62,267 bases of DNA from assembly GCA_043797125.1 (NCBI GenBank), contig JAZDPX010000042.1, forward strand, positions 1 to 62,267. Direction: 5' to 3'. Below are positions 3,769 through 27,594 of the stretch, piece after piece. The first letter of the stretch is position 1, and each line of letters starts with the position of its first letter. The notes beneath the pieces are model-generated. The model did no database searches and was not told the origin of the DNA. It saw nothing but the letters and a program-made list of their open reading frames with translations. Origin of the DNA: Candidatus Omnitrophota bacterium. Its GTDB lineage: Bacteria; Omnitrophota; Gorgyraeia; JABMRG01; JAFGKX01. The position numbers and the translations under genes were made by a program.

Positions 3769-3843
3769 ATGAAAAGAAAAATCATGAAAATAATATCTAT
3801 GGTTTTAATCATCGCCTTCACCGTAAACCAGGTGAGCTACGGC
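3769..3843 (+). other. N-terminal Sec-type signal peptide of the giant protein
   Basis: 'MKRKIMKIISMVLIIAFTVNQVSYG|AS' has a basic n-region, a hydrophobic core and small residues at -3/-1. Confidence 0.6.
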
Positions 3844-6800: not shown

Positions 6801-9800
6801 TTGGGTAGATAGCCTTGACGGAAAAGACGGTAAAAAAATAGGAGATATTTTAGAGAAAAAAGAAGACAAGCTAAAACAGGAAAAATTAGCGCTAGTATCG
6901 GACGCTAAACTGTTAAAAGACGCCATAGCCTATTCTAAACTGAAAATAAAGAATCCGGTTCTTAAGAAAAGGTTCCAAAAGCTTATTCCTACCCTGCTGT
7001 ATGAACAGGTTGATAATGACCCAAAAATAAGAAAGCAATACCTGGAGCTGTATAAAGCGTATCTGAGTTTTCCTATGGTGTATGAAGGCGAAAAGCTTAA
7101 TGACGTCAGCGCCAATTATATATCAAGAAATAAATTGGATGAAAAAGAGAGAAAACAGCTTTCCCTGTTTATGCCACAACGTGGTAAAGAGCTGGTGTCA
7201 AGAAAACTGGCCTTCGCGAAACTGCAGAACGAGACAACGCGTAAATTAGCAACTAAATTTGGCCTTTCCTATAAAAGTTATACTGAATTATCGCACGCGG
7301 CAAACGAATTCCCCTACAGCCAATTTGAAAAATTTGCCGGGCAAATAGAAACCGCAACCAAACACGCGATAACAGAGGCTGCCGATGAATATCGTCAAGC
7401 TTTAGCGGAAGAAGGCCTTGAGCTCCTGCCGCATAACGTGCTTTATAAAAACAGGAAAACTTATAAAGAAGTAGAGCAATACTATACAGTTGACCAGCTA
7501 TCTAAGGCGGTAAAACAAACCTTTGAAGATATGGGTATTGATATATCAAAGGTTTTGATTGACAACAACACAAGAGGGCAGGAAGGATTGGAAGGCAAAT
7601 TAGACGGGAGGTTTCCGCATCCCGGGATATCCACATATATCGGAAGAGGCCTCGCCGCGCGTATTCTATTAAACTTGCAGGACGGAGCTGATTTTGCCTA
7701 TATATTACCGCATGAAACAGGGCATGGAGCCAACCATACTAATGGTAATTTTGACGAAGGGACCCTTGTAGGCTCCTCAAGTCAGGCTATCAGCGAATTC
7801 CTGGCAAGGTTTATTGAAAATATGATTTATGACCCTGTATGGATACAAAAATATATTTCTGAAATGCCCAAACCTTTAATGTACGAATTTTTAGAGGCGC
7901 GCCGCAAAGAACACCTGCTTATGTTCAGGGGCCTTGGCTATTATCTGGCTGTTTCCGGCTTTGAGAAATATATGTATGAGTTGGCGGATATGGATGAGAA
8001 TTCTGAAGAATATAAGAAGATATATGGAGACATGACAAAAGAGCAGGCCCTGACGCAGTATTACTGGAACATGCGTTCAGGCATTACAGGAATCCCGGAT
8101 CCTGCGCATGTGAAAGACTATTATAATTCTCCGGAATGGGCAGGGCTTATTCATTATATAATCGCTACAGCGTACATGCCGTTTAGCTATTTCTACGCTG
8201 ATATTTATTATTATCAGGTAGCGCGCGCGCTTAAAGACAAAGGCCTCTCTATCGCGAAGAACCCGAAAGAAATAGGCAAATTTTTAACGGAGAAATTTTA
8301 TAATGTAGGAAGCAGGATATCCGGCGACGAAATAATAGAAAACGCCATAGGCAAAAAGCCAGATCCAAGAGATTATATACAATGGGCCATTACAGAGATC
8401 AAAAATCCGAGCATTAAGGAAGAAGTTATTTCTGCAGGCAAAAACAGAGAAAGAGGTATTTTTGATGTATCGAATTTTCTGCCTCTGTCAATAATAGAAG
8501 AGCCCCGGCCTGTTAAAATAAAGCAATTTAAAGAAGCAGATATGACTATAGAGTCTTTACCCATTGATGAGTTGCATAATTTAGTAAACAAGCTTGGCTT
8601 GCCATCTACTACTATGGTGCTTAATGCCAAAGACGGCATTGAATCCACCCAAGAGCTTATAAATAAAATAATAAATGAAAAAGTAGGAGTTGCGCTTGTT
8701 TTTTGCGATAACTACGAGCAGGCCAAAACTTTTTATTATACGCTGTTTAACAAAATAAAAGACATGGATACACTTGAGCGTGTTTTAAGCGCTTTATATG
8801 CCTTAAAGCCAGAAATCGCTGAAAGCGCTCCGCAGGGGCTTAACTTTGTTTTTTCTGAAAGCGCAATTTCGCCATTAATTTCATTAAAAGATGTTTTCTA
8901 TACCAGGATTGCTTCAGATAAAGACGTAAAAATTATAATTACACATTATGCCCAAGAGGATACGCAATCAGCAAAAGATTTAATTGAGTGGGCTAAAGGA
9001 AGAAAACAGAAAGACGCAGAAGAAGTAGCATCTAAATCCGAGAAGAAGCTTTTAAAATACGCATTGGTTGCTAAAAACACAAGCAACAGGATAGTAGGGA
9101 TCATTTATCCAGCTGCTGGAATTAAGCAAAAGCAAAACCTGGTTATCGCGTACCCGCCTCATAATAAAAAAATAGAGAAATTCGCCAAGCAACTTGAATT
9201 CAGAGGCGGTTTTGTAAAAGAAATAACGTCTATTAGCCCCATAAAAAAATATGGTTTTTACGGCATGTTTATCTTAACTTGGCTGAATTTAATGGACTTC
9301 GCTTATTATTTATTTGAAATGACGCAGAAGATTAATATCGGGCTCATTACACGGCCTGTTAGCATAGCTAGGGATATAGATTATGAGCCCACGGGAGACG
9401 AAACATATTATAAAGATGGTGTAAGGTTATACGAAAATGGTTGTAGCTTTGACAAAGATGGCAAGCGCCCTGAAGCGATACAGGTCTTTAACGAAGCGCT
9501 GGCAAAATTTAATGAAATTAGCGATCAATATAAGAAAAGGTCAGAACGGGATAATTTTATCAAGTTAACAGAAGGCAAGATAAAAGAAGAATGGCAAAGC
9601 AGGCTAAGGAATGCGAATACTCTATACAGCAAGGCAAGCTATAGTAAAGCAATTAATATTTTCAATGACATAATTGCAAATTGCAAAATAAGCAAAACCC
9701 GGCCAATTATACAAGAAGCGGAAAGGATGAGAGGCCTTGCGTATAAAAAGATGGTATCTGAAATAGAGTGGTGTAATAAAAAGATAGCTAAGTTAACTAG

Positions 9801-12800
9801 CGATATAGAAACGTGCAATAAATCAAAAAACTCAGGAAATATTAAAAAATTTGGAAACAAAAACGAAATAATCGTAACAAGCAGCGAAAAAATTATTGAA
9901 AAATTAGAAAATATTTTACAACATGTAAATAATCTAGATGAAACTGATATAACAGAGAACATTTATAATGAGATAATGAAAGCAAAAGACCCAGTTATTA
10001 CCGTTATTACTATAGAAAGCACAACACAAAAAACCCTGAAGCGGTTAATTGCTTATGTAAATACGCAATTAGAAAAATTGGAGCCATTGAAGGATTTAGA
10101 AGAAGATGAGCCGATCAAAAATAAGGCCGCTATTAACCTTGTCCCGGAAGATACACCTGCAGATGATGACACGATAAGAAAGTTAGAAGGCGAAATCGCA
10201 GCAGCGAAAAGCCAACTAAAGCAAAAATATAAGCATGAGGATAACTTAAGATGGTTGTTTGTGCTACATACCAGAACAATTGAACTTTCAAAAATTCAAG
10301 GTAACCAGAAAAAAGTTGAGAGATCTTTAAACGCGCTCAAAACGCTGACCAGCAAAGCTGGCCCATCAACGTCTCTTGGGAAAGAATTTTGCGCTAAACT
10401 TGGATCGATACTTAATTACTTAGGAAAGTATAAGGAGGCAAGGATATATTTTAATAATGGCATATTGTCTACTGACCGTGAGGCGAAACTGGCATCTTTA
10501 GAAGGCTTGGCTTACGCCTATTTATTCACAAATGATAATCAAGAAAGCGTAGAAGCAGCTAATATATTGCTTTCTCTTGAAGCCGATGACATCGCAGGAG
10601 CAATAACAAAAGCGTATGCGCTAAAAAACATGGAAGAATTTGAAGAAGCTGAGGTTGTCTTTAATGACCTTGTCAGACTAACTGAAGCGAAAATGCATAA
10701 TGAACCGTTAGAACTTGCCCCAATAAAAGCTCTGCTTGGCCTTGCCGATGTTTTACATAAACAGGGAAAGATAGACCAAGCGAAGCTAGAGATAAAAAGA
10801 GCCGTATGGCTTAATAAAGAAAGAAAAGATGTCAAAGAGGCCGTAACAGCTCTTTCTGTGGAAATCACAGCTCCTCCCGTCGCGAGCAGGGAAAATGTAA
10901 AGACTCTATACGAAGACGCATTAAAGATGCTGGACAGGCCCGAAGAGTGCATGAATGCCTTACGGGACATTTTCTACGTCATACAGGGAGAAAATGGCTA
11001 TGATGATGTTAAGGCGGATTTGCATGCCGGCATAGGTATATGTTTTCAAAAGATGCATAACAACAGGATGGCCGCGTTTGAATTCAAATACGCTAAATCA
11101 GCCAGGGTGGAAACTGAACAAGTGCACCCCGAAGACCTTAAAACACAGGCAAAGGAAAAACTTATTTTGGCTAACCAGTGTTATGACCCTAATGACCAGG
11201 ATAGCGGCTGGAAGGCAAAGGTATATCTGCGCGAGGTAATAGATATGGCAGACAGCGATACGATTTATGACGCCTATAACACGCTGGCATATATATACCA
11301 TTTAGAAGGTAACGTTACGGAAGCCATATTGCTTTATTCAAAGATGGTCGATTTGAAACTGCATGACGAGTCCGGCAAATGTGACATAAAAACAGTTTAT
11401 TACAGAATGGGTGTGGCATTCGCTGATGGCAAAATATTCCGCCATGCGCCTGATTATATAAAAAGTCTTGGAGGCGCAGGCGCTACGGATACAAAGAGAT
11501 TTTTTTCAAGCATGATTGCAGGTAGATTAGCCCAGAGAGAGGGCAATTTAGAAAAGGTAATCAGCGAAGCTTTCTTGGCTGTAAACCATATAAAAAGCCA
11601 GGAGCATTCTTACAATTTTTTAGCGGAGGCATATTGCAACTTAGCCTATTGTTTACGGCAACAGAAAATAACCGATGAAGTTACCGCGAATTATAAAAAG
11701 TCAATAGGGTTCTTGTTTAAGAAGTTAGGACTCGAAGCCCCCGGGGAGTCCGATAATCTGGAGACGTTCTGTGAGTTTACGGAAAAAAACATTACGCCGC
11801 ATGATCTATCTTTTGAAGAACGGCAGAATTTGGGAGAGATTTTAAATGGGTTCGGCGCTATATGCACCGATGTAGGGACCCCTGACTTGGCCATAAGATT
11901 TTTTGTCCTCGCGGATAAATTCCTTATTTCCAAAGAAGAGCGCAATTTTATGGTATTTTTGCGCGGACAGGCATATTTAGAGAAGGCACGTCTCTTAAGA
12001 GACGAAAAAGATGCCGGTGCAGTTGAAGCATTTTCATTAGCGGAAAAGGATTTAATAAGCAGCGAGAAGGCAATACCAAAATGCCGTAGTTTTGCATATT
12101 ATCTTTTAGGCGCGATAAACCTTTTTCTCAACAGGCCTAATGATGCTATAGGCTATGCCATTAAAGCCCAGAAAGAAGGTTATGAGAAATCTTATACTGA
12201 TATTACGCTGTTACATGCCAATTTGGCATTAAATAAGATAGACGATGCGCTGCTATTATTTAGCCAACTGATTAAACAATCCCCCACAAATGAAAAAATT
12301 TACACGACTTTACTTAGCGGGATCCACTCTGGTTGGGATAATCTGCCCAGATTTGTAATGAGCATGGGGAATGTGCCCGGCGCCATTGAAACATTCTGTA
12401 AGGTTGCTGAAACAGAGGACGATGTTGAAGAAAAAAACAAAATGGTAAATTCTCTTTTACCTATACTTAAAGAGACATCTGCTGGAAAAAAAGCCGCTAT
12501 TACAATTTTTAAAACACTTAATATGCTAAAAGATACAAGGGTTCTAGAAGGCCTCCTTGACTCTATCTCTTTGCAATTAAGCGAGATGCCAAAGAGCAAA
12601 AACGGCAATGGTAATAACCTGCATAGCCTTGCGGAGGATATTAATATTTTCGCTGAAAACTGCGACAACCTTCAACTAATAGAATTGGCGAATTTATTGA
12701 ACCAATATAAAAGTGATAACTTTTATGAAGATTTAATGCTTAAAACCAGCGTTAATGCAAGAGAAAAGATTGTTCAAGCGATGTTATTGCAGGCGCCTCA

Positions 12801-15800
12801 AACTGATGGCAAATGGCTTAAGGTTCTAAGCCAGAAAAACATTGACCAGCAAAAAGAGATTTTTGATGAATACAAAGTCAGCGATAACGGTGAAGTTCGC
12901 GATGAAGCCCTTGATTGCCTTGTAAGATTTGTAAAAGAAGGCATTGTGTTGAAAGACGAACCCGCTGAAATGCGGGCGGCGATGGAATTAGTGGCTATTT
13001 ACGCGGCAGATAACCGCCTCGACGATTTAAAAAATAGCAGTTATGCGCCGTTATGTATTGTTAAGGAAGAGGGTATGGAATTCGTATTGCCTTTGGAAGT
13101 CAGCTCGCATACACTCTCTAATGTGCGTGTTATGTTTAAAGGCAACAGGGAAATTGATGAAGAGGCGCTCCTTTTAATGAAAAAAGTTTTTAGAAACGGA
13201 AAAAGATTTATAAGTTCATACGCAGGTCGCACTCATTATTGGCTTCCGGTGCCGGTAGAAGGCGCAAACAAACAGAATATAGCCGTGGTTGCCATTGACG
13301 CAAAGGGCGCTATAAAAGGCAAAGCAGACGAAGAGGCTATAGCCTTTTCCGCGTATGCATTGACACACCTTTGCGAGGTTGATTATACAGGCGCCAGAAA
13401 GATCAGAGATGAGGTAAACAATGCGATTCTTTGGTGTAAGGGAAAAATCAAAGGCGAAGAGCCAAAAGTCTATTTTGACAGGCGAAGTCATTCAATTGTA
13501 GTTGCGCATGATAAATCTCCTAAAATGTGGAGTGTAAAAATAGAGAAAAATGTAGGAGCGGTTGTCAGCGAAAGGGATTTTTCACAAGAATATATTAATG
13601 GGTCAGATGATGTTAGCGAAATTTTTCATATTTCTTTACCTCTTTTGCCGCGCAATAAACCCAGGGATCCTACCGAAAGCACAAAGGTAGTGGACCTGAT
13701 TAATAAAATAAACAGATGTTTCGTAAGTGATGAAAAAAACACGGCTGGAAAAGACACAGCTTGGTTTTATATACAAAACGAACTATTAAATAAATACCCC
13801 AAACATACGCTTACCAAAGAAAACCTGCCTGTTTTTCAAAATTTATATATTAAAACCGCTGTAGAAGAAATAAAACAGCTTCTTGACGCAAGAGCCGATG
13901 AATATAATGTCCTGGATGCTTTTCTTGAAATAGAGAAATTAGAACAACATGTATCCAACGGTGACTTGCCGGCCAATAATACGCTTATTAAAAATAAGTT
14001 ACCAAGTTTGAAATATTTGGCCTATCTGGCTTTCACCGATATCCCTAAAGACGATGTGCTTGTATTGCTAAAAGTAAGGGCAAAACTGAAATTAGATGAT
14101 AAAGGTACGATTATAGATATGTATATGGACTTATATAAAGAGGCAATAGCCCCCTGGCAGATTTTGCTTATAGAATGCGTTGCGGAAGAAATCGCGGTTA
14201 AGCAGGGCATTAAGGATTGTGTTTTCGAATTGGAGTTTTCTGATACGGCACAACTTATAACCTTCGATTTTTCCAAAGCCGATATGGAAAACAAAATCAG
14301 GATTATCATAAAAGAAAACCCCCAAGATTTATCTAAAGATGTAGACATGCTTATAAAACAGGCAAGCGCGGCAGAAGCCGTGGGTGTTAAGAATGGAAGT
14401 AATCATAGGGTTATAACATCTTTGCCGCTCAAAACTGCGGTTAGGGGTATTTCGCGCGTAGATACTGTTATATCAATTGTTATAGTTACTGCCGGCCTTG
14501 GTGTCGGGTTGTTACTGGGATATTTCTTTGGCGTAGCAGTACCATTTATTGTAGCAGCTTCTTTATTTTCTATATTCGGAATATGGTATGTTGCAGCTAA
14601 GATATATAAGGCAAAATTTGCCTCAAAGAAAGCTGCGAAGGGAAAACCCGAGAAGGAAGAGACTATATACGACATTATAAAATCCGATTTTGAAGAAGCC
14701 TTAGGGTTAGAAAAAGTCGATGAGAAAATAGAAGCGTTAGAAAGCGCTCTAAAAGACGCGAAAAATAATTTGAGCTCCATATCAGAAGAAATCAGAACAA
14801 TAGAAGGCAAAAGAGCCCCGCTTGTTGATGCGCAAAGACAGGGCATAATTTTAAAGGTGGATGGAAAGGTCAAAAATATAAAAAGACAAACAGCGGGCAA
14901 GAGCTATTCCCGCAAACAAAAGATAAACCAAAAACATGAAGTGGTCTGGGAAGAACAGAATAAAGAATTAGGCGAGCTGACAAAACAACTGGACGAGTGC
15001 AATGGATTAAAACTGAAATTAGAGTGGTTAATACCGAAAATTGAAAAAGAATTTAAGCTGGCGAAAAAAGCAGCAAAACTGCTGCAGCCTGTTGTGCCAA
15101 GTGGGCACAAAAAAGTTATTAAGAAGAAAGAGCAACCGGAAGATAAACCCTATATAGAAGATAAAGAGCCAGAAAAGATTAAACCCAGCGATTTAGAGGA
15201 TAATCAAGCAGAATATACGACAGAAGTTGGAAAAATAAATAATCTGTTTAAGAAACATGAACAACGTATCAACGATTCCATGAATTATACTACCAGCGAC
15301 GCCTTTGAAACTTCTTTAGCAGAAGCCCACAAAATACGCCTTCAGGCTATAAATTTAGCTAAGGAAGATTCTTCTAATGTTAAGTTGCAGAAAGCCCTGC
15401 TAAAATTTGATGGATATAGCGAATATGTAAACCTGGCTATGCAGTATGCCAGCTGGCTTTTTGAAGACGCGCAAAGATATTACGACGCGCACAACGAATC
15501 GCTAGATTCTTTTCCTTCTAAGTACGCAAACGCCCAGGTAATATTATATACAGAATTAATTGGGTCACGAGATATAGGCGCGTTTGATAAAAAGGCGCAG
15601 GAAATTCGTCAGGGAAAGCTTGATAGAGGATTCCCCGTAGGAATTTCTGTTTTTGAAAATAACCTTAAAGCGGCAAGGGTGGAGTTTGCAAAATTAAATG
15701 AAGGCAACAAGGAAGAAACCCCGGTTACACTTGAAATAATTGCAAACCATTTAAATAATAAGACATTCGAAAAAGAAGAAAACCAATATGAACTGAAAAC

Positions 15801-18800
15801 ACAGTTGCTATCTTCAGGTAAGAGGCTCTATATGAGGATAGACGAAGTCGGCGGCGAAAAGTGTATGGACTTTGATATACAAAAATATATACCGGATGAA
15901 GGGAAATTTATTATCAAGTTTAATAGAATTTACAACAAAGACTACCCCAGCCTATTCTTGCCAGAAGTCATAAAATTGATTATGCAGCTACCGGGCTTCG
16001 AAAAAGGCGCAGTATTTGAGGATACCGACGGCAACGTAGTCGATTTCGGCGGCTCTGAAAACGACGATTCGTTCCTGAAGAAGGTCTACGGCTTTGTGCT
16101 ACCTTTGCTATTGTTCTACGGTCCTAAAATCCTGGAATTTCTTAAAGACAGGCCCGTTGGGCTTTCGACGAAAATAGTCCAAGGCGATAGAATTGATTGG
16201 CTTCTTACTGAATTAGAGGAGAAGCTTAAGGACGATCCCAAATCCGCAGAAATGATAGAAATTAATGATTTGTATAGCAAAGCGAAAACAGCTATTAATA
16301 AAGGAAAAGTCTATTTAAGCGAGGCGGAATCGTGTCTAAAGGAATTAAAAGATAAAAGCCACAACATTAGATTAATATCTGTAACCGCTGTTTTCAATTT
16401 AGTACATAATGAAGCAGTCAATATTCGAAATAGCAAAGATATTAAACCTAAATGGGAAAACGCGAAAACTGAAAGTGATTTTAACGAATTGCGCAAAGCT
16501 ATTAAGGCCTACCCGGTTATTGAAGCGCAGAGAGGGAAAAAATTAAGTGACCATGAAAAGCAAAGACAGCGGATACAGAAAATAGCCAAGCAAGAACTGC
16601 TTCTTCTTGTAATGGAGAACGAAATAATTGCTTTAAAAAGGAAAATAGAGTCGCCGTCTACGCAAAAGAAGTCAGTAATAAAGCAAGACACAAAGAAAAC
16701 ACAGAAAGAAAAAGAAGCAACGAGGCTGTTTGATGAATTTGTAAAACATCTCAACGACTCCAAACACCGAATATTTGAAACCGCGAAAGCCGGGTTTGGC
16801 AAATCGTGGGAAAGTGCATGGGAAGAAAGCAAAACACTTTATAATAAAGCAAAAGAAATGCTAAACAGCTCAAAAATGCTGAATTACTGCGATATAGATA
16901 TGCTTGGCAAGGCCAACAAGATGCTGGAACAGACGCTGATTCTTCGCGAAACCGCAAAAGCGATTTTTCAATGGGATTTTGAGCTTGCAAAAGAAGAAAA
17001 AGCGAAATTAACCAATCTGAAACATCAAGATACAATGAATGTCTATTTTCAAGAGCAGAAGAAGCTAAAGGAAATGATAATAAACTATATAAACGATGGG
17101 AAACAAGATGAATTCGAAAAAGAAGTAAAGCACATAGAAAATAAATTTGTTAAGCCGGATTTGAGCACTCTAAAAGAGCAGGCAAAGCTGCGCGAAGAGG
17201 AAATCGCGCGTTTTGACAATTATGATCAACTAGAAAAGTTTATGGACTCATTAGTCGAATTTAAAGCATATGACAAGATTTCAGTTATCGTTACTTATAC
17301 AGCTAAGGACTCAGCTGAACTTTTAGAGCGTGGTGTTGTTGCAAGTGATAGGTATTCAAGACGTGCTTTATTAGATTATTGTCGTATTAAGGACGGCGAT
17401 ATAAATAAATCTTTTATTATTAAAATGAGGCAGGAAAAGAACTGCCCATTGAGTTATTTTTATAACGTAAAGAAGCGCCTTGAGGAAGCGGTTGAGCAAT
17501 TTAAAGATACCGCAACAGAAAAACAGGAAATAAACTACGAATTAAAATTATCTGGCAAGGAAGCGCTTAAGTTTATTAAATTTCTCAATTCCAGGAAAGA
17601 GGAATGGGCCGGCAAAATATCGGGAATGATTATAGTTGCTGTCTACGGAAGCATTAACATGGCAAAGGATATAAGTGACCCCAAGCAGGCTGCATTGTTG
17701 TCGGAGAAAATCAACCTTCATATTAATTCAACCGAACGTTTTGATGTTAGAGTAATGACAGCTGTAAAGAATTCGGATGATTATAAAGCTGTATATGAAA
17801 TGATTACTCAAGCGTTTGAAGAGGTCACCAAGCCGCAAGAAGAAGCTATCGTAGAGTCAGAGCCGATAACCTGCAAATTAAGCGGTGGGGCGGTTATTGA
17901 AGCTGTTGAAGGTATAATGGCAAATGGTATGACATGTGATACCATGGGATATATTAAAATTATTATACCAGGTATCAATTACGAGCATGTTTTTGAGCAC
18001 TACGACTTGGATGCTATCGATGGCCTTAAGGCAACGATACAAGAAGGCAAGCTAGATGCTACGTTTACAGTTAAAGTGATAATCGGTTTTAAAAACAGCC
18101 CTGATGAAAAAGGCATAGAAAAAATTACTGCGATTCTTAAAAATGCCGAAGGCGCTTATGCCAAAGTAAAGTTAGTAGAAGAGCTGGAAGAATTAGACCA
18201 GGAGAATATAGATGGGAAAATGCCCGATGGAAAATATACTTTAAGAGACGTTGATATCGTTTTAGATGGTCTAGAAGAAAACATATCTATTCAAATGAGT
18301 CTGTATGATGATAAAAATGAACACGGCGACATTTTTATATGGGCACTCAACTATTCATCAGAAGAGGAAAAATTTACAGCTAGTTGGCTTGATATGGCGG
18401 AAGGACATCGCGAGGAAAGATTAATAGCAAAAGTAATACAGCGCATTTTACAATGCAAACTTATTCCGGATAAGGCAAGATTTGAGTTTATTATAGGCGC
18501 AAGCCGCGGTCAAACGAAGGCATTACTAGACCCTGAACTCGGCGGTGATTTATCAGAATTTGGGCTATCCTGCAGTGTTGAAGAAAGAGACAGTGAAATT
18601 GTTTACACAGTCAAGAAAACGGACAAAATGAACGAAGAGGTCACCACGTTACAAGTTCATGAGCCGATGAAAACGGATGACCAGGTCACATTTGACCATG
18701 TCAGCAATGTTACTGAAGAAAAACCGATTAGCCTCAAGACAGTTGCGGATAGTCTGAATAAAACGACATTAGAAAAAGATAAGCACATGTATTCTTTGAC

Positions 18801-21800
18801 AACGAGCTTTACAGATTGCATAAAAGTCGGTGGCTACGAAAGCCTCTACATAAGAATAGAGGAACAGGGTAGAAGGTGTCTCGACTGGCATATTGAGTAT
18901 TTCCCAAGCGAAAATAAATTTGCTATGGGTCTCCCTATCCGCGCAGAACAAATGGATAACGCTAATTTATTATGCCCCGAAGTTATAAAATTAATCAAAC
19001 AAATGTTCGGCATAAAAAGAGATTTAATATTTGAGGATAATAAAGGTAATATTGTTGATTTTGGCGGCTTGAAAAAGCAAACCGGCAAAACCGACAAAAA
19101 ACAGCCAGCCGTATTAACCAATGAGGAATCCAATGCATTTGTGAAATATCTTAAGAGCCAGACCGTATGCAACGGCGAAAAAATAGAAGCAAAATGGTGG
19201 AGGCATGGTTCTAGTAATCCGGTTTTTGAAATAGAGGCAGGCAAGCTTGATAAATGGAGATTTTCATATGAAGCAAAAGGCAATGACATAATAATTGACA
19301 CCCTATTGAGCAATGATGCTGTAGATTTTAGTGGTTGGACATACAAAGGCTTAGAGGATGCCGATACTACCGTAATGGTTGAGCTGATAAAAGTCATTTT
19401 ATCAGCCGAGCAGATTCCGGATGATGCGAAGTTTGAATTTCATATAGCCTCAAAGGACCAAGATACCCTTAATTTCTTTAATACCTTGATAGCGAAACAT
19501 GCGCCAAACTTTGGCCTTCAGTGTAAAGAGAGCCGCTGGGGTTATTTTGTATACGCAGATAAACAGGTTACCCCCCCGCTTACGCTCGAGGCAAGCAAGT
19601 CGCAACGAACAATGCCGCAACAGCAAGCAGACTACAAAGTTATAACAATGAAATTTACGCTTGCGGGAGATAGTTTAAAGCATTTTGCGTGGATGAGCAA
19701 TCATAAGGATTATAGCCTGTTAAAAAATAAAACCTGCGTTTCTTCATTTACTGTCTTTACTCAAGCTGTAAAAGGAAAAGTATTTGATATGCTGAAAGAG
19801 ACATATGACGGTAAAGATGTAAATGACCTGCAATATGCAATAAGCGAGAATAGTTTGTTTGTTGAGCAAGGCGTGGAAGTAGAGGTTGTCGTAAAATCAG
19901 AATATGCTGCGGAGACAAAGAGGCTGCTTGGGGAGATGTTGAAAAACTCGTCTAATGCAAAAATAGAGCTTGAAACAATTGAAGACGCAGCTGCAGCATT
20001 ACCCAGCCAGGCCGCGATCTCGCAAGAAAAAACAACAAAAGGCATGGAGGATATAGAAATAAATCCTGTTATAACCACAGATGAGCATATGTACGAAATA
20101 CGTAAATTTTTGCAGAATCAAAAAATAACAGCAAAAGAATCAAAGACCGACTACAAACTAAGTTTGTCTTGGAGCGAATTTGATGAGAACGGTTTCGAAG
20201 CATGCTTTTATATATATCACAACACCGAACCCAAAGCCCTTGTTGACTGGCATGTGACTTATTACCCAAAATACAATAAAATTCAATTTAAAGCTTTTAG
20301 CTCCAGATTCGTCGAGGAATGCAAACAGCAGGGCCTAATAGTCGCATTTATGCAGGCTATAAATAACGCGCCGAATATGGCAAATACAAAATTTGAATTT
20401 CCTGTTTACGCAATCGGCAAAGATGTATTTGAAAAAGAAATCAAGCCGTATTTACCGGATTATGGCTTTGAATTCGTTGAGGGAGTTAAAAACTGGGTGT
20501 CTGTTTATTTTGTTGCGAAAACTGATAAAAAGGACACAACGGACGAAACGAAAGACAAGACCACCAGGTCACAAGTCACCACGTCACAAGTTCCAGAAAC
20601 GAAAATTACAGGAAAAACTGCGGATATGTCCTTTAAGGCGTTTAGTGAAGAAATCGATACAATAACCGACGAGATTTCAAATAAGTACAAAAAAGACTGG
20701 GAGGAAAAGATAAGACATATAGTAATTAGTGTGGATGGAATCGATTTGATAATAGGAGACGATTCAATAGGCAAACAAATAGGCCTTCGGTTAGAAGAAA
20801 GAGGCATGTGGTCTTCTGAAGTGCAAGTTACACTAGCAGTTGTTTTTATAACAGAGCCAGATGATTCCGTTATCAGCGAAATTAATTCCATAATCAAGAA
20901 AAACATAGCTTTAAAAACAAAAATACCCCCCATAGAAGGCAATGTGCTCGCATGGAAGCCGAATGATGTTGAAGGCGAAGATATAGAAAATACCTCATTT
21001 TCGTTAATCTTCAAAGATTCTAGAATGCATGTAAGAACGGCACCTTCTTTGCCGATAACTTATGAACAGGCAATAAAATTCATAGAAGAATATAAACAAA
21101 GAATGATAGAGCGCGCAGAAAAAGTTCTTGAGATTCCGCATCTGGTAGCTGATTTTGGCAATGCCACGGGCTCATCTGTATATGGATTAAAAAGTCCGAA
21201 AGACGCAGACGATATTATGAAATCTATGGATGGAGCTTATAACAAGAAACTTACCAAGTTGGTGTTAGAAACCCGAGAGCAGGCGCACAAAGATACTGAG
21301 GAACTAAGAGCTATCATGGAGCTTTTAGAGAGCTGTATCAGCGGAGCTAAGGCGGTTGAAACAGAAGAGGTCACCAGTCACAAGGTCACCACGTCACAAG
21401 AGGCAGAGAAAATAACCCTAACCGATGACGGCAAAGGCGCTCTTGTGTGGCAGCATCATAAGACGGAAAAAATATTTAGTAATATAAATGCAGAGCAGTA
21501 TTATTTAATACAGCGAACTGATATACAAAAAATTAAAGAAAGCGAAAGATCCAGCGATATTCCTAAAATTAAGATAACAGGTCAGAGCTTGCTTAAATTT
21601 TTGAACGATAACGATGAAATCATAGATGATTGTAAAGCGTTGGTAACTAATGAATACATAAACGTATATGAGTTGGTAACGACTGTTTATGAAGCGGATG
21701 AATATGCAGGATCGTATAGCCTACATCTGTACAAAACTCCGGAAAAAACAGATGTGAATGCACTAAAAAAATTACTTTACGAAATAGGAAAAAAAGAGAT

Positions 21801-24800
21801 AGAGGTTCAGTTTGTCGTGCGGTCCAGCGGAATAGACAAGTTAGAGCCGAACCTGAAAAAGCTAAAAGATATATTTGAGACATACATAGAAGGAGCCGGA
21901 AAAGTCACAAGACACAAGTCACAAGACACAAGGTCACAAGAAACTGAACAAGCTGCGCTAACCGGTAAACAGATAGATGAGTTCGGGTGTTATCTAAAAA
22001 ATCAGAAAATCGACGGTGTTGACTTAAATCAAAAAAGGGTAACCTATGGAATAACAGTAATTTATTTAGAGGAAACATCCTACGGGTTTCAATTCAAAAT
22101 CGCGATAGATAGAGAGGTTGAAGAAGGCAAAGATTATTTTAGCTGCGATGTTATGTATGATTTTAATAGAAAGGCATTTGCATGCGTTAATTTCAGCGTG
22201 CAGGGAGGAATATATAAATTTATCAAAATGGTGGAATTAATTTTAAATGCCCCTCATATTCCAAAAGACGCAAAGCTGGTTTACAATGTATATAGCGAGG
22301 ATGGTTCCTCAAAAAAGCAGCTTAACAATTTTGGCGATTTATCAGAATATGGCTTAATTCACAGCGCTAAAAAAGAAGGCAATATTTATACTGCTAACAG
22401 CATCACTAAAATACAAAAAAAGGACGATAAAGAGGTCACAAAGCCACAAGTAAAAAAGAAAAAACGAACATCTGGCAATGAAGGTAATGGTGGTTCAGGA
22501 TTTGGCACAAGCCTTGGAACCTGGTGCGCGGCGTTTATGGTAATTCCTTTTGCATGGGAAGGCTTTGCGACCATGTTCGGAGTTGACCCTGCGGCTAAAC
22601 TGGCTGTGCATGGTTTTATATTCGCGACACTGGGGATTTTTGGCAGCGCGATTTCTTTTAAGTGGTGGAAAGAGTTTTTTAATAATTTCTTTGCTGACCT
22701 GCTTTCGTACAAAGCAATACCAACTGATTATGCGAAAAAAGTCAAAGAAGTTACAAAAAAGATAAAAGATGTAAAGCTGGGTAAGGGTAAAGAAAACGCA
22801 AAATATAACCAGATTAGCTCAAGCGCAGCAGGGCTTTATGAAAATATCCCATCAAGCGTAAAGAAGGATTTTGCTAAAATCATCGGGCGCAATTCATCTT
22901 TGGATATGTTTTATAGGTTTTTAAAAGAAATCTCGGTTATCTCCGCGGCTGAAGAGTCATACCATCCTATAGATTACATAGCTGCGCAAGCAAGATTTAA
23001 TAAGCTTAAGAAAGATAAAAGTGCGCTAAGCTCTTTAGGTAATTTAGATATTTCCTGGGAAGTCATATTTTTAACAATAGGCCTGCTTGAGCATAGTATG
23101 CTTTTACCGAAAGAATGGAAATTGCACCGCCATATAGATATCACCAAGGACTTTCTTGTAAAATTAGGATATAAAAAAGAAACGAAACAGGTTTTAAATC
23201 TTATAAAAGCATATCACAGTATTATGAGCTCACATGCAGATGATGAATTTTTGACTAAGAAAGCTGTTGAGAATGTGGTTAGCATAATTACCAAAGAAGA
23301 CTCCGAGAAAAGAGAGCTGAAAGCATCAATGAATATAATGCTTATGGCGCTTGGCGAGGAAGTAAAAGAAGCAAAATCTGAAAAAAGAGTTGTTTCCGAA
23401 GAGTTGCCAACTCCGGAAATAAGCGTAGAAACAGATATTACAGAGTCTGAAGAGGATGAAAGCATTGACTATACAGATACAGATGGCGAAAAAGAAACTA
23501 AAAAGTCCGAAATAAAACAATCTCACGATGTTACTTTTGGTATGGAAATGTTCAAAAAATACCATAATCCCGACTTAGTCTTTCAGGATGATGGAGAGGG
23601 AGAAAGTATTGAAGAAGGCGGAGATGATGCTATCGGAACATATTCAGTGACATATAATAATTTCTGTATTCTTGCCGATATATTAATTCAGGAACGCGAC
23701 AATATACGCGCTTCGGCAGGTTACAAAAGAGTTGACTTGAAAGTTGTTAAGGAATGGATTTCTAAAGGAGTAAGCCAAAAATCAGAAAAGGAATATGATA
23801 TCACAAACAAGTTTTTTGTTGAACAGATGCTAAAAGACGCGGAGGTTGATTTGGGTAAAGAGTCTATGAGCATCAGCGTAATAGTAGAGAATATAGAATC
23901 TACGCCCGGCAGAGTTATCGAATTGCTCAACGAAGCAGAAACCGGAAAAATAGCTGAAATGGCGAAAGCCGAAACTCCGGGTTTGTTCATAGGCAAAACA
24001 GTAACAGCTTGGCGGATAACGCCAAAAGATCTGCGTAATCTCGTAAAATCTCTGACAGAAGAATTAGATGCCGATAAAAATAAATATAAAGGGCTTTCTT
24101 TTCGCATTCAGGAAAAAGGTAAAACAGGATTCGATATGTATAATATTAATAATACGGATGATCTTAGGAACTTAGACAACTGTATTTACGCGCAAATATA
24201 TCCTTATGACAGGCCATTAATGGTCATAATACAGGATTCAGACTCAAGCGACAAGAAAGAACATGCGCAACTCGTAGTTAAGAAGTTTATTCGTTATCGT
24301 AAATTTACGAATGAAGAGGCAAAAGAATGGTTAAAGCCTGGAAAGAAGCACACAGGATATGGGGATTGGCTGTCGTCTATTGATACAGGTAATTTCATCT
24401 TTGCGCTAGTAGCGATCCTAACCGGAGCAATAATATGGTTTTTCACAGGTGGCAGCAGCACAGAACATCATGATATGATTCTGCCGATTTTATCTGTGGG
24501 TGTAGGGTCAAGCCTTAGAGATTCAATAACAGCTACAGTTTATAATCTTTTTGTTTACAATAAAGATTTAGAAAAGACAAAAAACCGGCAGTCAGATGAA
24601 ACCGAATATACCAAAACAGAAAGTATAAAAAAGGTAGAACAAACACATAATACTGCTTTACCAGAAAACGACTTAAAAAATCGCCAAAGATTCTTCTATG
24701 GGCCCATAAATACCTTTGCGGGCATAGCAAGCTTAATCCTGCTTTCGCCTTTCTGGGCTTACGGAGGGCTTGTAAAGGCGTTACACAAGCTGTTCAGCAA

Positions 24801-27594
24801 GGCAGTGTTGATAACGATAGCAACGGGCGCGATTTCGCTTTTTGGGGTTTTGAAAAGCTTCGGGCAGGATGCGGTGAATACGGCTGTTAATACAACATTG
24901 GTTGTAGACACTTACGGTTGGTGGGATCAACTTTGCCATGGGGTAGGTTATGTATATTTGGTGTACATAGGCATTTCCTTGGGTATCTCAATATTGCTCA
25001 TTACCGCATGGATAATACTTTTTAGTATTTGGAAAGGTAGGGTAATATGGGCAACGTGGGAATTAAGCCCACGCAAAATTTTGTCAAATTTGCATACATG
25101 GGACAATTTTGAGCGAAAACGCAATGCTTTTTTAAAAAAGATAAATATGGCCAGCAGCAACAAAGAGACAAAAATAGAGGCAGCAAAACAAATTCATTCA
25201 GAATACCCTGATAAAGAAAGGCTAACTAAGAGATATAAAAAGATTCTCGCCGCAAAGCTGCCATCAATAAAAGAAATGCGCGATTTATTCAAATCAGCAT
25301 CAGCCCTGTCGCTGGTAAAGAGCAAAACCAGCTTTTTAGACGTAAAAAAAGCAGGCGAAAGATTAACTGAATATCTAAAAAGCGGCAGCTCGGAAACAAG
25401 ATACATCGCTGTCGATACGAAGATATTATTAGCATCAATCTCGTTGTTAGACTATGGGTTGATATTGGGAGACGGTGTTTTGCCTGTGAAGGCCTCGGAG
25501 CTGGGGCGCGATTTATTATCGCGGGTTGAGTCTGGCCAAGAAGTTATGCGCTGGGTCGGCATTCTTATCGAGGCCTATTATCATCACAGGGCGGATAAAG
25601 GAAAGAGTTTCGCGGAGAATCTGGAAGCGGCCAGCGATTGGGCTAAATGCGATTCTTCGGCGAAGGATAAATTGAAAACGTTATTTAATGCGTTAGTGAA
25701 AATTATTGACGGGAAAACAGAGCCGTCAGGCGAAGATTATGAAACGCCGCTAGCAAAATGCGATAAAAACGACGTTGAAGGGCGCACCGGGATTCGCTAC
25801 AATGAAATACTGCAAAGGGATAAAGATAGCAAAGCCAAATATTGGGCTAACCTATCGCGGGGTGAAAAACTGCGCGCGGTGATGACAAAATACACAGTAA
25901 AATATGCCATATTAGCATGGCTTGCTTCCATGCCGCTAAAGGCATTAGGCGGCGATAGATGGTATAACGATTGTTTAAGGTGGATAGCGAAAAACATAGG
26001 CGCGATGTGGGGTTTAAGAAAGCTTGTTTCGCAATTCATTATCCCAACGCCGCCGGATGTGCAGGAAGCGACAAAAATAACGCAAGAGGCAATTGATAAA
26101 GAGAAGCAGCGCCAAATCGGGCTTATTCTTGACAGCGTCGGAGACGCCGCCAAGAATAAGGAAGAGGCAGAATTTCATCTTCGTCATTATATCAGCATGA
26201 TGGAGAATCTCGGAGCGAAAATGGATAAGTCAATTGATTCGGACGGAAAAACAAGGATAGATTTCGCGGTTAAGCTAAGTGCTATCTGCTTCGAGGCCTG
26301 GGAACGCGATGATAATAATACTAGATTTAATAATAGGCAGAAATTAGAAGGTATTCTGCAGGAGCTTATTGTTTATGCCAAAAAAGTGGAGCGAAACAAT
26401 AACGATGTTTATATTGTTATTTGCATTGACCCCGAGGAATACGCGTACAGAGATTTTTCAATCGAGGTTTATAAAAAGGTAATCGATGACTTTAAAGGTC
26501 AATACGGCGACGGCGTAAAGGAAAACCCGGTTATTTACGGCGAGAAAAACGGCAAGAAGTTGTTGAGAATAGGCACAGCTGTGCAGGCATATCTTAAAGA
26601 TTCAGGCAAGGTGCTGGAGCAAGATTTACTTGCTTGGGAAAAACAGAATAATTACAGCATGCCGTTACGCTTAGTAAAAGGCGCTTATGACGAAAAAGAG
26701 AAAAAATGGGCGGAAAAAGGCATGCGCTATCCGCTTAATAAAAATATATCACCCGAAAAGAAAGGATTCTCTTCGCCTGTTTTTACGAATAAAGAATCAA
26801 CCGACGCGCATTTTGAGCTTTTAACGGAATTTCTAATGGCGAACTCCGAGCATTTCCAGATAGCGATAGCTTCTCATAATTACCGTTCAGTTGCGCACGC
26901 GATGGCTGTGGCTGATAAATATGGTTTAAACAAGAAAGACTGGCGAATTGAGATGCTTTATGGTTTTAACGAGCCGGGCAAGGATGTTTATGTTGGCATG
27001 GGATATCAGGTATTCGGGTACGCGCCTATTGGCTTGGAGGAGAGTGGATATCCATATGTAGGCAGGCGCCTTCTTGAGATGCGCAATAAGAAAAACGCCA
27101 TAACGTATATTATGGCAGGTGATGAAACGTTCCTGGAAGATTTACGCAAAAAGCCCGGGTTTCCGAAAGACAAAAGCGATGATCCGAAGCTTGTGCCGAT
27201 AATACCTAAACCGGATGTTTTTAAGATGAGCCAGGAGGATATTTTGGCAAAATGGCTTACAAATTATTTAAGAACAAGGGAAGCAGGGTCTTCATTTACA
27301 GCCTCTGGAGCAGCGAATGATTTTCAGCAAGAAAACAAATATTCTATTTCAAATGAAAAAATGGCAGAAATTTTGGATGCCTTATTGAAAGAAGGCGTGT
27401 TAGTAAGGGTTGAGAAGCAGGGTGTTCCAAAGGCCAATGAATTGTATTGGGCTCTTACAGACGTACAAAAAGTGCAAAGCAGTAAAGATGATACGGATAT
27501 AGAGAGGGCTATAAGTGAGGCCATAGTTGAGAAACCGCGCAGGGAAGAAATAATCAACCCGAAAATAACAGAAAAAATAGGCCAGGCGGCGTAG
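3769..27594 (+). CDS. Giant (7,941 aa) multi-domain secreted/membrane protein: signal peptide, PLP-fold, M3-like peptidase, TPR, repeat modules, multi-TM, proline dehydrogenase
   Basis: This is a single stop-free frame of 23,826 nt. An AGGAGAGG sequence lies about 10 nt upstream of the ATG. All overlapping minus-strand ORFs are short (<=183 aa). Recognisable domain signatures occur along the whole length, so the frame is coding throughout rather than open by chance. Confidence 0.9.
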   Translation: MKRKIMKIISMVLIIAFTVNQVSYGASGEHIAREKAASALRPASLVDNSLFPNSTFQINPQFDGNIGEIVEQTVFEKSGTPLEAATHEPESLVERMIADFESAGVPRGEDNKKKRYEGVSFVSGMASIYAAASYALENNDLDDPNKAEIILLRPAYGCSDNLFGQLQSVAKVKFVNSLEELKEAVTENTVFFFFESPANPSLKIIPIKKAADIVKSKNPNAIVAFDNTFATSAAQQPLRHGVDISMVGCTKGISAVGDVEGAVLVAKKDIAEKLKSRRAKLASPIDALDAFKIIKYGLPFLYKRLEKQQSNAFKVVELLKQKVNDGIIKSVSYPGDLQNPDYETAKAQMTNFGHMIYFDLDTLERAKACVNLTKYTRFLNYAVSLGQVRTLIEVPALGTHKTVSKEDQKAGGISEGGVRLSVGIENIDDVLRELECVFTILERYKDNLDAIPYDKLDRIFMAKWYGPNGETEHLLRKMPIIRRKNNKYVIEPNITRAISRLRDDYTKETARIIHEATRIDRCDAQNLLIHHTWLWGLLSGDHHSLTSSGGSTTFRSENAKSMEDAFISLGLLEKDTQKIEAGLRNIYTRLGTPAIVTLETLVTLFETGVKDALSYKYRGFSTPSLNEAINCVINKSILTTPAKENNKPIKIVAFTSENTKLDLIINHYKNQYYSELENENGNLKFEFEAVYSPSGIAGLNETVDFVFVDDAPYSGLNVSDINSIKQHTNAKITWINTSGFSKGIQPIKEGADMSIVSIKDGEEENSAVIVAPFEDATKFAGTRKNTDNPVRDRKALEASNYILPHREFGIATQTYERKTAYLHEETPGHVFISAEHIKSNKSFPDEVNILGSKVSITLICSTHHTETRESVNAPSIIRDTCNDMINNATNQAQISEDDIEGFLISRQVDIAKNNFYTKIINFLKYIKDYVLASIRKTVYYDEVKKFIDEVELKLDSINEQLYSIGTQRNSCIADCPISSPEDKEKYDTYFSSLPDKQQEVLKESKWKYPIFWVDSLDGKDGKKIGDILEKKEDKLKQEKLALVSDAKLLKDAIAYSKLKIKNPVLKKRFQKLIPTLLYEQVDNDPKIRKQYLELYKAYLSFPMVYEGEKLNDVSANYISRNKLDEKERKQLSLFMPQRGKELVSRKLAFAKLQNETTRKLATKFGLSYKSYTELSHAANEFPYSQFEKFAGQIETATKHAITEAADEYRQALAEEGLELLPHNVLYKNRKTYKEVEQYYTVDQLSKAVKQTFEDMGIDISKVLIDNNTRGQEGLEGKLDGRFPHPGISTYIGRGLAARILLNLQDGADFAYILPHETGHGANHTNGNFDEGTLVGSSSQAISEFLARFIENMIYDPVWIQKYISEMPKPLMYEFLEARRKEHLLMFRGLGYYLAVSGFEKYMYELADMDENSEEYKKIYGDMTKEQALTQYYWNMRSGITGIPDPAHVKDYYNSPEWAGLIHYIIATAYMPFSYFYADIYYYQVARALKDKGLSIAKNPKEIGKFLTEKFYNVGSRISGDEIIENAIGKKPDPRDYIQWAITEIKNPSIKEEVISAGKNRERGIFDVSNFLPLSIIEEPRPVKIKQFKEADMTIESLPIDELHNLVNKLGLPSTTMVLNAKDGIESTQELINKIINEKVGVALVFCDNYEQAKTFYYTLFNKIKDMDTLERVLSALYALKPEIAESAPQGLNFVFSESAISPLISLKDVFYTRIASDKDVKIIITHYAQEDTQSAKDLIEWAKGRKQKDAEEVASKSEKKLLKYALVAKNTSNRIVGIIYPAAGIKQKQNLVIAYPPHNKKIEKFAKQLEFRGGFVKEITSISPIKKYGFYGMFILTWLNLMDFAYYLFEMTQKINIGLITRPVSIARDIDYEPTGDETYYKDGVRLYENGCSFDKDGKRPEAIQVFNEALAKFNEISDQYKKRSERDNFIKLTEGKIKEEWQSRLRNANTLYSKASYSKAINIFNDIIANCKISKTRPIIQEAERMRGLAYKKMVSEIEWCNKKIAKLTSDIETCNKSKNSGNIKKFGNKNEIIVTSSEKIIEKLENILQHVNNLDETDITENIYNEIMKAKDPVITVITIESTTQKTLKRLIAYVNTQLEKLEPLKDLEEDEPIKNKAAINLVPEDTPADDDTIRKLEGEIAAAKSQLKQKYKHEDNLRWLFVLHTRTIELSKIQGNQKKVERSLNALKTLTSKAGPSTSLGKEFCAKLGSILNYLGKYKEARIYFNNGILSTDREAKLASLEGLAYAYLFTNDNQESVEAANILLSLEADDIAGAITKAYALKNMEEFEEAEVVFNDLVRLTEAKMHNEPLELAPIKALLGLADVLHKQGKIDQAKLEIKRAVWLNKERKDVKEAVTALSVEITAPPVASRENVKTLYEDALKMLDRPEECMNALRDIFYVIQGENGYDDVKADLHAGIGICFQKMHNNRMAAFEFKYAKSARVETEQVHPEDLKTQAKEKLILANQCYDPNDQDSGWKAKVYLREVIDMADSDTIYDAYNTLAYIYHLEGNVTEAILLYSKMVDLKLHDESGKCDIKTVYYRMGVAFADGKIFRHAPDYIKSLGGAGATDTKRFFSSMIAGRLAQREGNLEKVISEAFLAVNHIKSQEHSYNFLAEAYCNLAYCLRQQKITDEVTANYKKSIGFLFKKLGLEAPGESDNLETFCEFTEKNITPHDLSFEERQNLGEILNGFGAICTDVGTPDLAIRFFVLADKFLISKEERNFMVFLRGQAYLEKARLLRDEKDAGAVEAFSLAEKDLISSEKAIPKCRSFAYYLLGAINLFLNRPNDAIGYAIKAQKEGYEKSYTDITLLHANLALNKIDDALLLFSQLIKQSPTNEKIYTTLLSGIHSGWDNLPRFVMSMGNVPGAIETFCKVAETEDDVEEKNKMVNSLLPILKETSAGKKAAITIFKTLNMLKDTRVLEGLLDSISLQLSEMPKSKNGNGNNLHSLAEDINIFAENCDNLQLIELANLLNQYKSDNFYEDLMLKTSVNAREKIVQAMLLQAPQTDGKWLKVLSQKNIDQQKEIFDEYKVSDNGEVRDEALDCLVRFVKEGIVLKDEPAEMRAAMELVAIYAADNRLDDLKNSSYAPLCIVKEEGMEFVLPLEVSSHTLSNVRVMFKGNREIDEEALLLMKKVFRNGKRFISSYAGRTHYWLPVPVEGANKQNIAVVAIDAKGAIKGKADEEAIAFSAYALTHLCEVDYTGARKIRDEVNNAILWCKGKIKGEEPKVYFDRRSHSIVVAHDKSPKMWSVKIEKNVGAVVSERDFSQEYINGSDDVSEIFHISLPLLPRNKPRDPTESTKVVDLINKINRCFVSDEKNTAGKDTAWFYIQNELLNKYPKHTLTKENLPVFQNLYIKTAVEEIKQLLDARADEYNVLDAFLEIEKLEQHVSNGDLPANNTLIKNKLPSLKYLAYLAFTDIPKDDVLVLLKVRAKLKLDDKGTIIDMYMDLYKEAIAPWQILLIECVAEEIAVKQGIKDCVFELEFSDTAQLITFDFSKADMENKIRIIIKENPQDLSKDVDMLIKQASAAEAVGVKNGSNHRVITSLPLKTAVRGISRVDTVISIVIVTAGLGVGLLLGYFFGVAVPFIVAASLFSIFGIWYVAAKIYKAKFASKKAAKGKPEKEETIYDIIKSDFEEALGLEKVDEKIEALESALKDAKNNLSSISEEIRTIEGKRAPLVDAQRQGIILKVDGKVKNIKRQTAGKSYSRKQKINQKHEVVWEEQNKELGELTKQLDECNGLKLKLEWLIPKIEKEFKLAKKAAKLLQPVVPSGHKKVIKKKEQPEDKPYIEDKEPEKIKPSDLEDNQAEYTTEVGKINNLFKKHEQRINDSMNYTTSDAFETSLAEAHKIRLQAINLAKEDSSNVKLQKALLKFDGYSEYVNLAMQYASWLFEDAQRYYDAHNESLDSFPSKYANAQVILYTELIGSRDIGAFDKKAQEIRQGKLDRGFPVGISVFENNLKAARVEFAKLNEGNKEETPVTLEIIANHLNNKTFEKEENQYELKTQLLSSGKRLYMRIDEVGGEKCMDFDIQKYIPDEGKFIIKFNRIYNKDYPSLFLPEVIKLIMQLPGFEKGAVFEDTDGNVVDFGGSENDDSFLKKVYGFVLPLLLFYGPKILEFLKDRPVGLSTKIVQGDRIDWLLTELEEKLKDDPKSAEMIEINDLYSKAKTAINKGKVYLSEAESCLKELKDKSHNIRLISVTAVFNLVHNEAVNIRNSKDIKPKWENAKTESDFNELRKAIKAYPVIEAQRGKKLSDHEKQRQRIQKIAKQELLLLVMENEIIALKRKIESPSTQKKSVIKQDTKKTQKEKEATRLFDEFVKHLNDSKHRIFETAKAGFGKSWESAWEESKTLYNKAKEMLNSSKMLNYCDIDMLGKANKMLEQTLILRETAKAIFQWDFELAKEEKAKLTNLKHQDTMNVYFQEQKKLKEMIINYINDGKQDEFEKEVKHIENKFVKPDLSTLKEQAKLREEEIARFDNYDQLEKFMDSLVEFKAYDKISVIVTYTAKDSAELLERGVVASDRYSRRALLDYCRIKDGDINKSFIIKMRQEKNCPLSYFYNVKKRLEEAVEQFKDTATEKQEINYELKLSGKEALKFIKFLNSRKEEWAGKISGMIIVAVYGSINMAKDISDPKQAALLSEKINLHINSTERFDVRVMTAVKNSDDYKAVYEMITQAFEEVTKPQEEAIVESEPITCKLSGGAVIEAVEGIMANGMTCDTMGYIKIIIPGINYEHVFEHYDLDAIDGLKATIQEGKLDATFTVKVIIGFKNSPDEKGIEKITAILKNAEGAYAKVKLVEELEELDQENIDGKMPDGKYTLRDVDIVLDGLEENISIQMSLYDDKNEHGDIFIWALNYSSEEEKFTASWLDMAEGHREERLIAKVIQRILQCKLIPDKARFEFIIGASRGQTKALLDPELGGDLSEFGLSCSVEERDSEIVYTVKKTDKMNEEVTTLQVHEPMKTDDQVTFDHVSNVTEEKPISLKTVADSLNKTTLEKDKHMYSLTTSFTDCIKVGGYESLYIRIEEQGRRCLDWHIEYFPSENKFAMGLPIRAEQMDNANLLCPEVIKLIKQMFGIKRDLIFEDNKGNIVDFGGLKKQTGKTDKKQPAVLTNEESNAFVKYLKSQTVCNGEKIEAKWWRHGSSNPVFEIEAGKLDKWRFSYEAKGNDIIIDTLLSNDAVDFSGWTYKGLEDADTTVMVELIKVILSAEQIPDDAKFEFHIASKDQDTLNFFNTLIAKHAPNFGLQCKESRWGYFVYADKQVTPPLTLEASKSQRTMPQQQADYKVITMKFTLAGDSLKHFAWMSNHKDYSLLKNKTCVSSFTVFTQAVKGKVFDMLKETYDGKDVNDLQYAISENSLFVEQGVEVEVVVKSEYAAETKRLLGEMLKNSSNAKIELETIEDAAAALPSQAAISQEKTTKGMEDIEINPVITTDEHMYEIRKFLQNQKITAKESKTDYKLSLSWSEFDENGFEACFYIYHNTEPKALVDWHVTYYPKYNKIQFKAFSSRFVEECKQQGLIVAFMQAINNAPNMANTKFEFPVYAIGKDVFEKEIKPYLPDYGFEFVEGVKNWVSVYFVAKTDKKDTTDETKDKTTRSQVTTSQVPETKITGKTADMSFKAFSEEIDTITDEISNKYKKDWEEKIRHIVISVDGIDLIIGDDSIGKQIGLRLEERGMWSSEVQVTLAVVFITEPDDSVISEINSIIKKNIALKTKIPPIEGNVLAWKPNDVEGEDIENTSFSLIFKDSRMHVRTAPSLPITYEQAIKFIEEYKQRMIERAEKVLEIPHLVADFGNATGSSVYGLKSPKDADDIMKSMDGAYNKKLTKLVLETREQAHKDTEELRAIMELLESCISGAKAVETEEVTSHKVTTSQEAEKITLTDDGKGALVWQHHKTEKIFSNINAEQYYLIQRTDIQKIKESERSSDIPKIKITGQSLLKFLNDNDEIIDDCKALVTNEYINVYELVTTVYEADEYAGSYSLHLYKTPEKTDVNALKKLLYEIGKKEIEVQFVVRSSGIDKLEPNLKKLKDIFETYIEGAGKVTRHKSQDTRSQETEQAALTGKQIDEFGCYLKNQKIDGVDLNQKRVTYGITVIYLEETSYGFQFKIAIDREVEEGKDYFSCDVMYDFNRKAFACVNFSVQGGIYKFIKMVELILNAPHIPKDAKLVYNVYSEDGSSKKQLNNFGDLSEYGLIHSAKKEGNIYTANSITKIQKKDDKEVTKPQVKKKKRTSGNEGNGGSGFGTSLGTWCAAFMVIPFAWEGFATMFGVDPAAKLAVHGFIFATLGIFGSAISFKWWKEFFNNFFADLLSYKAIPTDYAKKVKEVTKKIKDVKLGKGKENAKYNQISSSAAGLYENIPSSVKKDFAKIIGRNSSLDMFYRFLKEISVISAAEESYHPIDYIAAQARFNKLKKDKSALSSLGNLDISWEVIFLTIGLLEHSMLLPKEWKLHRHIDITKDFLVKLGYKKETKQVLNLIKAYHSIMSSHADDEFLTKKAVENVVSIITKEDSEKRELKASMNIMLMALGEEVKEAKSEKRVVSEELPTPEISVETDITESEEDESIDYTDTDGEKETKKSEIKQSHDVTFGMEMFKKYHNPDLVFQDDGEGESIEEGGDDAIGTYSVTYNNFCILADILIQERDNIRASAGYKRVDLKVVKEWISKGVSQKSEKEYDITNKFFVEQMLKDAEVDLGKESMSISVIVENIESTPGRVIELLNEAETGKIAEMAKAETPGLFIGKTVTAWRITPKDLRNLVKSLTEELDADKNKYKGLSFRIQEKGKTGFDMYNINNTDDLRNLDNCIYAQIYPYDRPLMVIIQDSDSSDKKEHAQLVVKKFIRYRKFTNEEAKEWLKPGKKHTGYGDWLSSIDTGNFIFALVAILTGAIIWFFTGGSSTEHHDMILPILSVGVGSSLRDSITATVYNLFVYNKDLEKTKNRQSDETEYTKTESIKKVEQTHNTALPENDLKNRQRFFYGPINTFAGIASLILLSPFWAYGGLVKALHKLFSKAVLITIATGAISLFGVLKSFGQDAVNTAVNTTLVVDTYGWWDQLCHGVGYVYLVYIGISLGISILLITAWIILFSIWKGRVIWATWELSPRKILSNLHTWDNFERKRNAFLKKINMASSNKETKIEAAKQIHSEYPDKERLTKRYKKILAAKLPSIKEMRDLFKSASALSLVKSKTSFLDVKKAGERLTEYLKSGSSETRYIAVDTKILLASISLLDYGLILGDGVLPVKASELGRDLLSRVESGQEVMRWVGILIEAYYHHRADKGKSFAENLEAASDWAKCDSSAKDKLKTLFNALVKIIDGKTEPSGEDYETPLAKCDKNDVEGRTGIRYNEILQRDKDSKAKYWANLSRGEKLRAVMTKYTVKYAILAWLASMPLKALGGDRWYNDCLRWIAKNIGAMWGLRKLVSQFIIPTPPDVQEATKITQEAIDKEKQRQIGLILDSVGDAAKNKEEAEFHLRHYISMMENLGAKMDKSIDSDGKTRIDFAVKLSAICFEAWERDDNNTRFNNRQKLEGILQELIVYAKKVERNNNDVYIVICIDPEEYAYRDFSIEVYKKVIDDFKGQYGDGVKENPVIYGEKNGKKLLRIGTAVQAYLKDSGKVLEQDLLAWEKQNNYSMPLRLVKGAYDEKEKKWAEKGMRYPLNKNISPEKKGFSSPVFTNKESTDAHFELLTEFLMANSEHFQIAIASHNYRSVAHAMAVADKYGLNKKDWRIEMLYGFNEPGKDVYVGMGYQVFGYAPIGLEESGYPYVGRRLLEMRNKKNAITYIMAGDETFLEDLRKKPGFPKDKSDDPKLVPIIPKPDVFKMSQEDILAKWLTNYLRTREAGSSFTASGAANDFQQENKYSISNEKMAEILDALLKEGVLVRVEKQGVPKANELYWALTDVQKVQSSKDDTDIERAISEAIVEKPRREEIINPKITEKIGQAA
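3931..5088 (+). other. Cys/Met-metabolism PLP-dependent enzyme fold (cystathionine gamma-synthase / methionine gamma-lyase family-like)
   Basis: The family motifs are colinear: 'VSGMASIYAA', 'FFESPANPSLKI', 'FDNTFATSAAQQPLRHGVDISMVGCTKGISAVGD' (candidate PLP lysine at 4519-4521), 'SYPGDLQNPDYETAKAQMTNFGHMIYFDL', 'AVSLGQVRTLIEVPALGTH', 'GGVRLSVGIENIDDVLRELE'. Confidence 0.75.
5536..6349 (+). other. Degenerate second copy of the same PLP fold
   Basis: 'YTRLGTPAIVTLETLVTLFETG' resembles YSRxGNPTxxxLExxxAxLEGG. 'VDFVFVDDAPYSGLNVSDI...WINTSGFSKGIQPIKEGADMSIVSIKDG' resembles the ESPxNP...DNTF...GADIVxHSxTK block, but the S-x-T-K spacing is altered. Confidence 0.35.
7190..8450 (+). other. M3-type (oligoendopeptidase F / thimet-like) zinc peptidase-like module
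   Basis: 'DGADFAYILPHETGHGANH' carries HETGH at 7711-7725, followed by 'SQAISEFLARFIEN' (candidate third-ligand Glu). The flanks are long and helical, as in the M3 family. Confidence 0.55.
9390..12300 (+). other. TPR-like / coiled-coil repeat tract (~970 aa)
   Basis: There are many 34-aa-type helical repeats with A/L/Y/G periodicity, e.g. 'LGSILNYLGKYKEARIYFNNGIL', 'AYALKNMEEFEEAEVVFNDLVRL', 'LGLADVLHKQGKIDQAKLEIKRAV', 'LAYIYHLEGNVTEAILLYSKMVDL'. Confidence 0.55.
14464..14604 (+). other. Transmembrane hairpin (TM cluster 1)
   Basis: 'VISIVIVTAGLGVGLLLGYFFGVAVPFIVAASLFSIFGIWYVAAKIY' contains two hydrophobic spans and is followed by a Lys-rich segment. Confidence 0.6.
15721..16053 (+). repeat. 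Internal repeat module, copy C1 (aa 3985-4095)
   Basis: It aligns end to end with 18721-19068. Shared blocks are 'L(N)KTT(F/L)EK', 'LY(M/I)RI(D/E)E', 'PEVIKLI', 'FED..GN(V/I)VDFGG'. The DNA has diverged, so the duplication is old. Confidence 0.7.
18226..22362 (+). repeat. Four related 'A-type' repeat modules (18226-18573, 19114-19524, 20062-20475, 21958-22362)
   Basis: Each module is ~115-135 aa and ends in a conserved block '(V/I)xL(I/L)xxAxxIPxDAK(F/L)E(F/Y)...(F/Y)G(L/F)': 'IPDKARFEFIIGAS...EFGLSC', 'IPDDAKFEFHIASK...NFGLQC', 'MANTKFEFPVYAIG...DYGFEF', 'IPKDAKLVYNVYSE...EYGLIH'. The 'DWHVTYYPKYNKI' segment of module 3 matches 'DWHIEYFPSENKF' of copy C2, which links the A and C types. Confidence 0.6.
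18721..19068 (+). repeat. Internal repeat module, copy C2 (aa 4985-5100)
   Basis: 'PISLKTVADSLNKTTLEKDKHMYSL...CLDWHIEYFPSENKF...CPEVIKLIKQMFG...FEDNKGNIVDFGG' is the partner of copy C1. It lies almost exactly 1,000 aa downstream of C1. Confidence 0.7.
22501..22670 (+). other. TM cluster 2 (two hydrophobic spans)
   Basis: 'GTWCAAFMVIPFAWEGFATMFG...LAVHGFIFATLGIFGSAISFKWW'. Confidence 0.55.
24360..25050 (+). other. TM cluster 3 (about 5-6 hydrophobic spans)
   Basis: 'FIFALVAILTGAIIWFF', 'MILPILSVGVGSSL', 'FAGIASLILLSPFWAYGGLV', 'AVLITIATGAISLFGVL', 'VYLVYIGISLGISILLITAWIILFSIW'. Confidence 0.55.
26257..27120 (+). other. Proline dehydrogenase (PutA/PRODH-type FAD beta8alpha8) domain at the C-terminus of the giant protein
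   Basis: The PRODH signatures are colinear: 'IVICIDPEEYAYRD', 'GTAVQAYLKDS', 'LRLVKGAYDE', 'FTNKESTDAHFELL', 'IAIASHNYRSVA', 'IEMLYGFNEP', 'FGYAPIG', 'YPYVGRRLLEMRNKKN'. The Arg-Arg pair and the following Glu are retained. Confidence 0.8.
27340..27465 (+). other. Possible winged-helix-like tail
   Basis: 'EKMAEILDALLKEGVLVRVEKQGVPKANELYWALTD' has the helix-turn-helix plus beta-wing pattern typical of wHTH domains. This is pattern-level evidence only. Confidence 0.25.

Follow-up and report, generated by a model that had tools for sequence, protein, structure and literature searches.

A proline dehydrogenase and a predicted winged-helix domain at the C-terminus of a giant Omnitrophota membrane protein

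Giant "multi-enzyme" proteins with a signal peptide and transmembrane (TM) helices have already been described in Omnitrophota. The window analysed here, a 62,267-nucleotide stretch of DNA from a Candidatus Omnitrophota bacterium, contains, at positions 3769..27594 of the forward strand, one uninterrupted open reading frame that is genuine and encodes 7,941 amino acids. The protein fits the described class, a point absent from the first-pass annotation. Its N-terminal module is a PLP-enzyme whose homologues include one from an Omnitrophica MAG, and the last ~580 residues form a proline dehydrogenase (PRODH) followed by a small, predicted winged-helix domain. The PLP-enzyme homologues and the known giant class account for the oddity of this arrangement. 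Among the best 200 PRODH relatives inspected, none was found in a giant open reading frame. The features of the C-terminal region, all on the forward strand, are:

about aa 7058-7088: last TM helix
about aa 7358-7805 (nt 25840-27183): PRODH module, true extent from the profile of nearest relatives
aa 7606: PRODH motif QAYL
aa 7634: PRODH motif RLVKGAY
aa 7677: PRODH motif STD
aa 7702: PRODH motif SHN
aa 7730: PRODH motif LYG
Y7751-A-P-I-G7755: PRODH motif
aa 7766: PRODH motif RRLLE
aa 7822-7896 (nt 27232-27456): winged helix of ~75 aa, canonical fold by structure prediction

The Pfam Pro_dh profile, the search suggested by the first-pass annotation, matches aa 7440-7774 (nt 26086-27090) with an E-value of 3.9e-52; the score is 178 bits, where 27 bits is the cutoff, and the similarity is far beyond chance. 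Positions 3-272 of the 278 in the profile are covered, which corresponds to a full-length domain. The model of the domain is a PutA-type (βα)8 barrel, closest to PutA of Bdellovibrio and Geobacter. The profile of the nearest relatives aligns to aa 7430-7805, within an envelope of 7358-7822. The PRODH module annotated earlier is confirmed, but its start at 26257 (aa 7497) was placed too late, and excluded strand β1 and the N-terminal arm.

The hallmark blocks, previously listed as complete and ordered, were all located in the same order. The substrate and flavin motif residues are all retained, including K7502, D7554, Q7606, R7634, H7703/N7704, L7730, Y7751, Y7763-x-x-R7766-R7767, and E7770; the arginine pair was among the residues that had been singled out for checking. 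Because the sequence match, the modelled fold, and the complete set of hallmark residues agree, the PRODH domain is seemingly intact.

The PRODH domain does not lie just after the last TM cluster, as had been proposed, since roughly 270-340 non-hydrophobic residues without an assigned domain separate it from the last TM helix. A cytoplasmic location, previously suggested on the proviso that TM parity allowed it, would follow from the positive-inside rule applied locally. In contrast, simple helix parity, which takes the N-terminal signal peptide as its starting point and runs through eight clear helices, would place the domain outside the cytoplasm, and the closest PRODH relatives have Sec/Tat-type signal peptides.

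No aldehyde dehydrogenase domain follows PRODH or occurs anywhere else in the window, which bears out the reported absence of a downstream P5C dehydrogenase. This absence is not remarkable, since PutA-type PRODHs often occur as standalone proteins: many of the 120 matches listed are PRODHs of this type that are ~460 aa long and lack that domain.

The predicted winged helix has a PadR/MarR-like fold and is trailed by ~45 low-confidence residues up to the C-terminus. The earlier annotation anticipated the fold and its end (27465, aa 7899), but the unit is longer than the "final ~40 aa" proposed. The tail has no sequence relatives among 1.84 billion representatives and is net acidic (9 K/R versus 11 D/E), as is the putative recognition helix. 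The DNA-binding domain of PutA is well established to be a ribbon-helix-helix (PMC5293562), whereas the tail of the giant protein is a predicted winged helix; these observations do not support its interpretation as a rearranged analogue of the PutA domain. The PRODH-plus-winged-helix ending is a new domain combination within a previously known class of giant multi-enzyme proteins.

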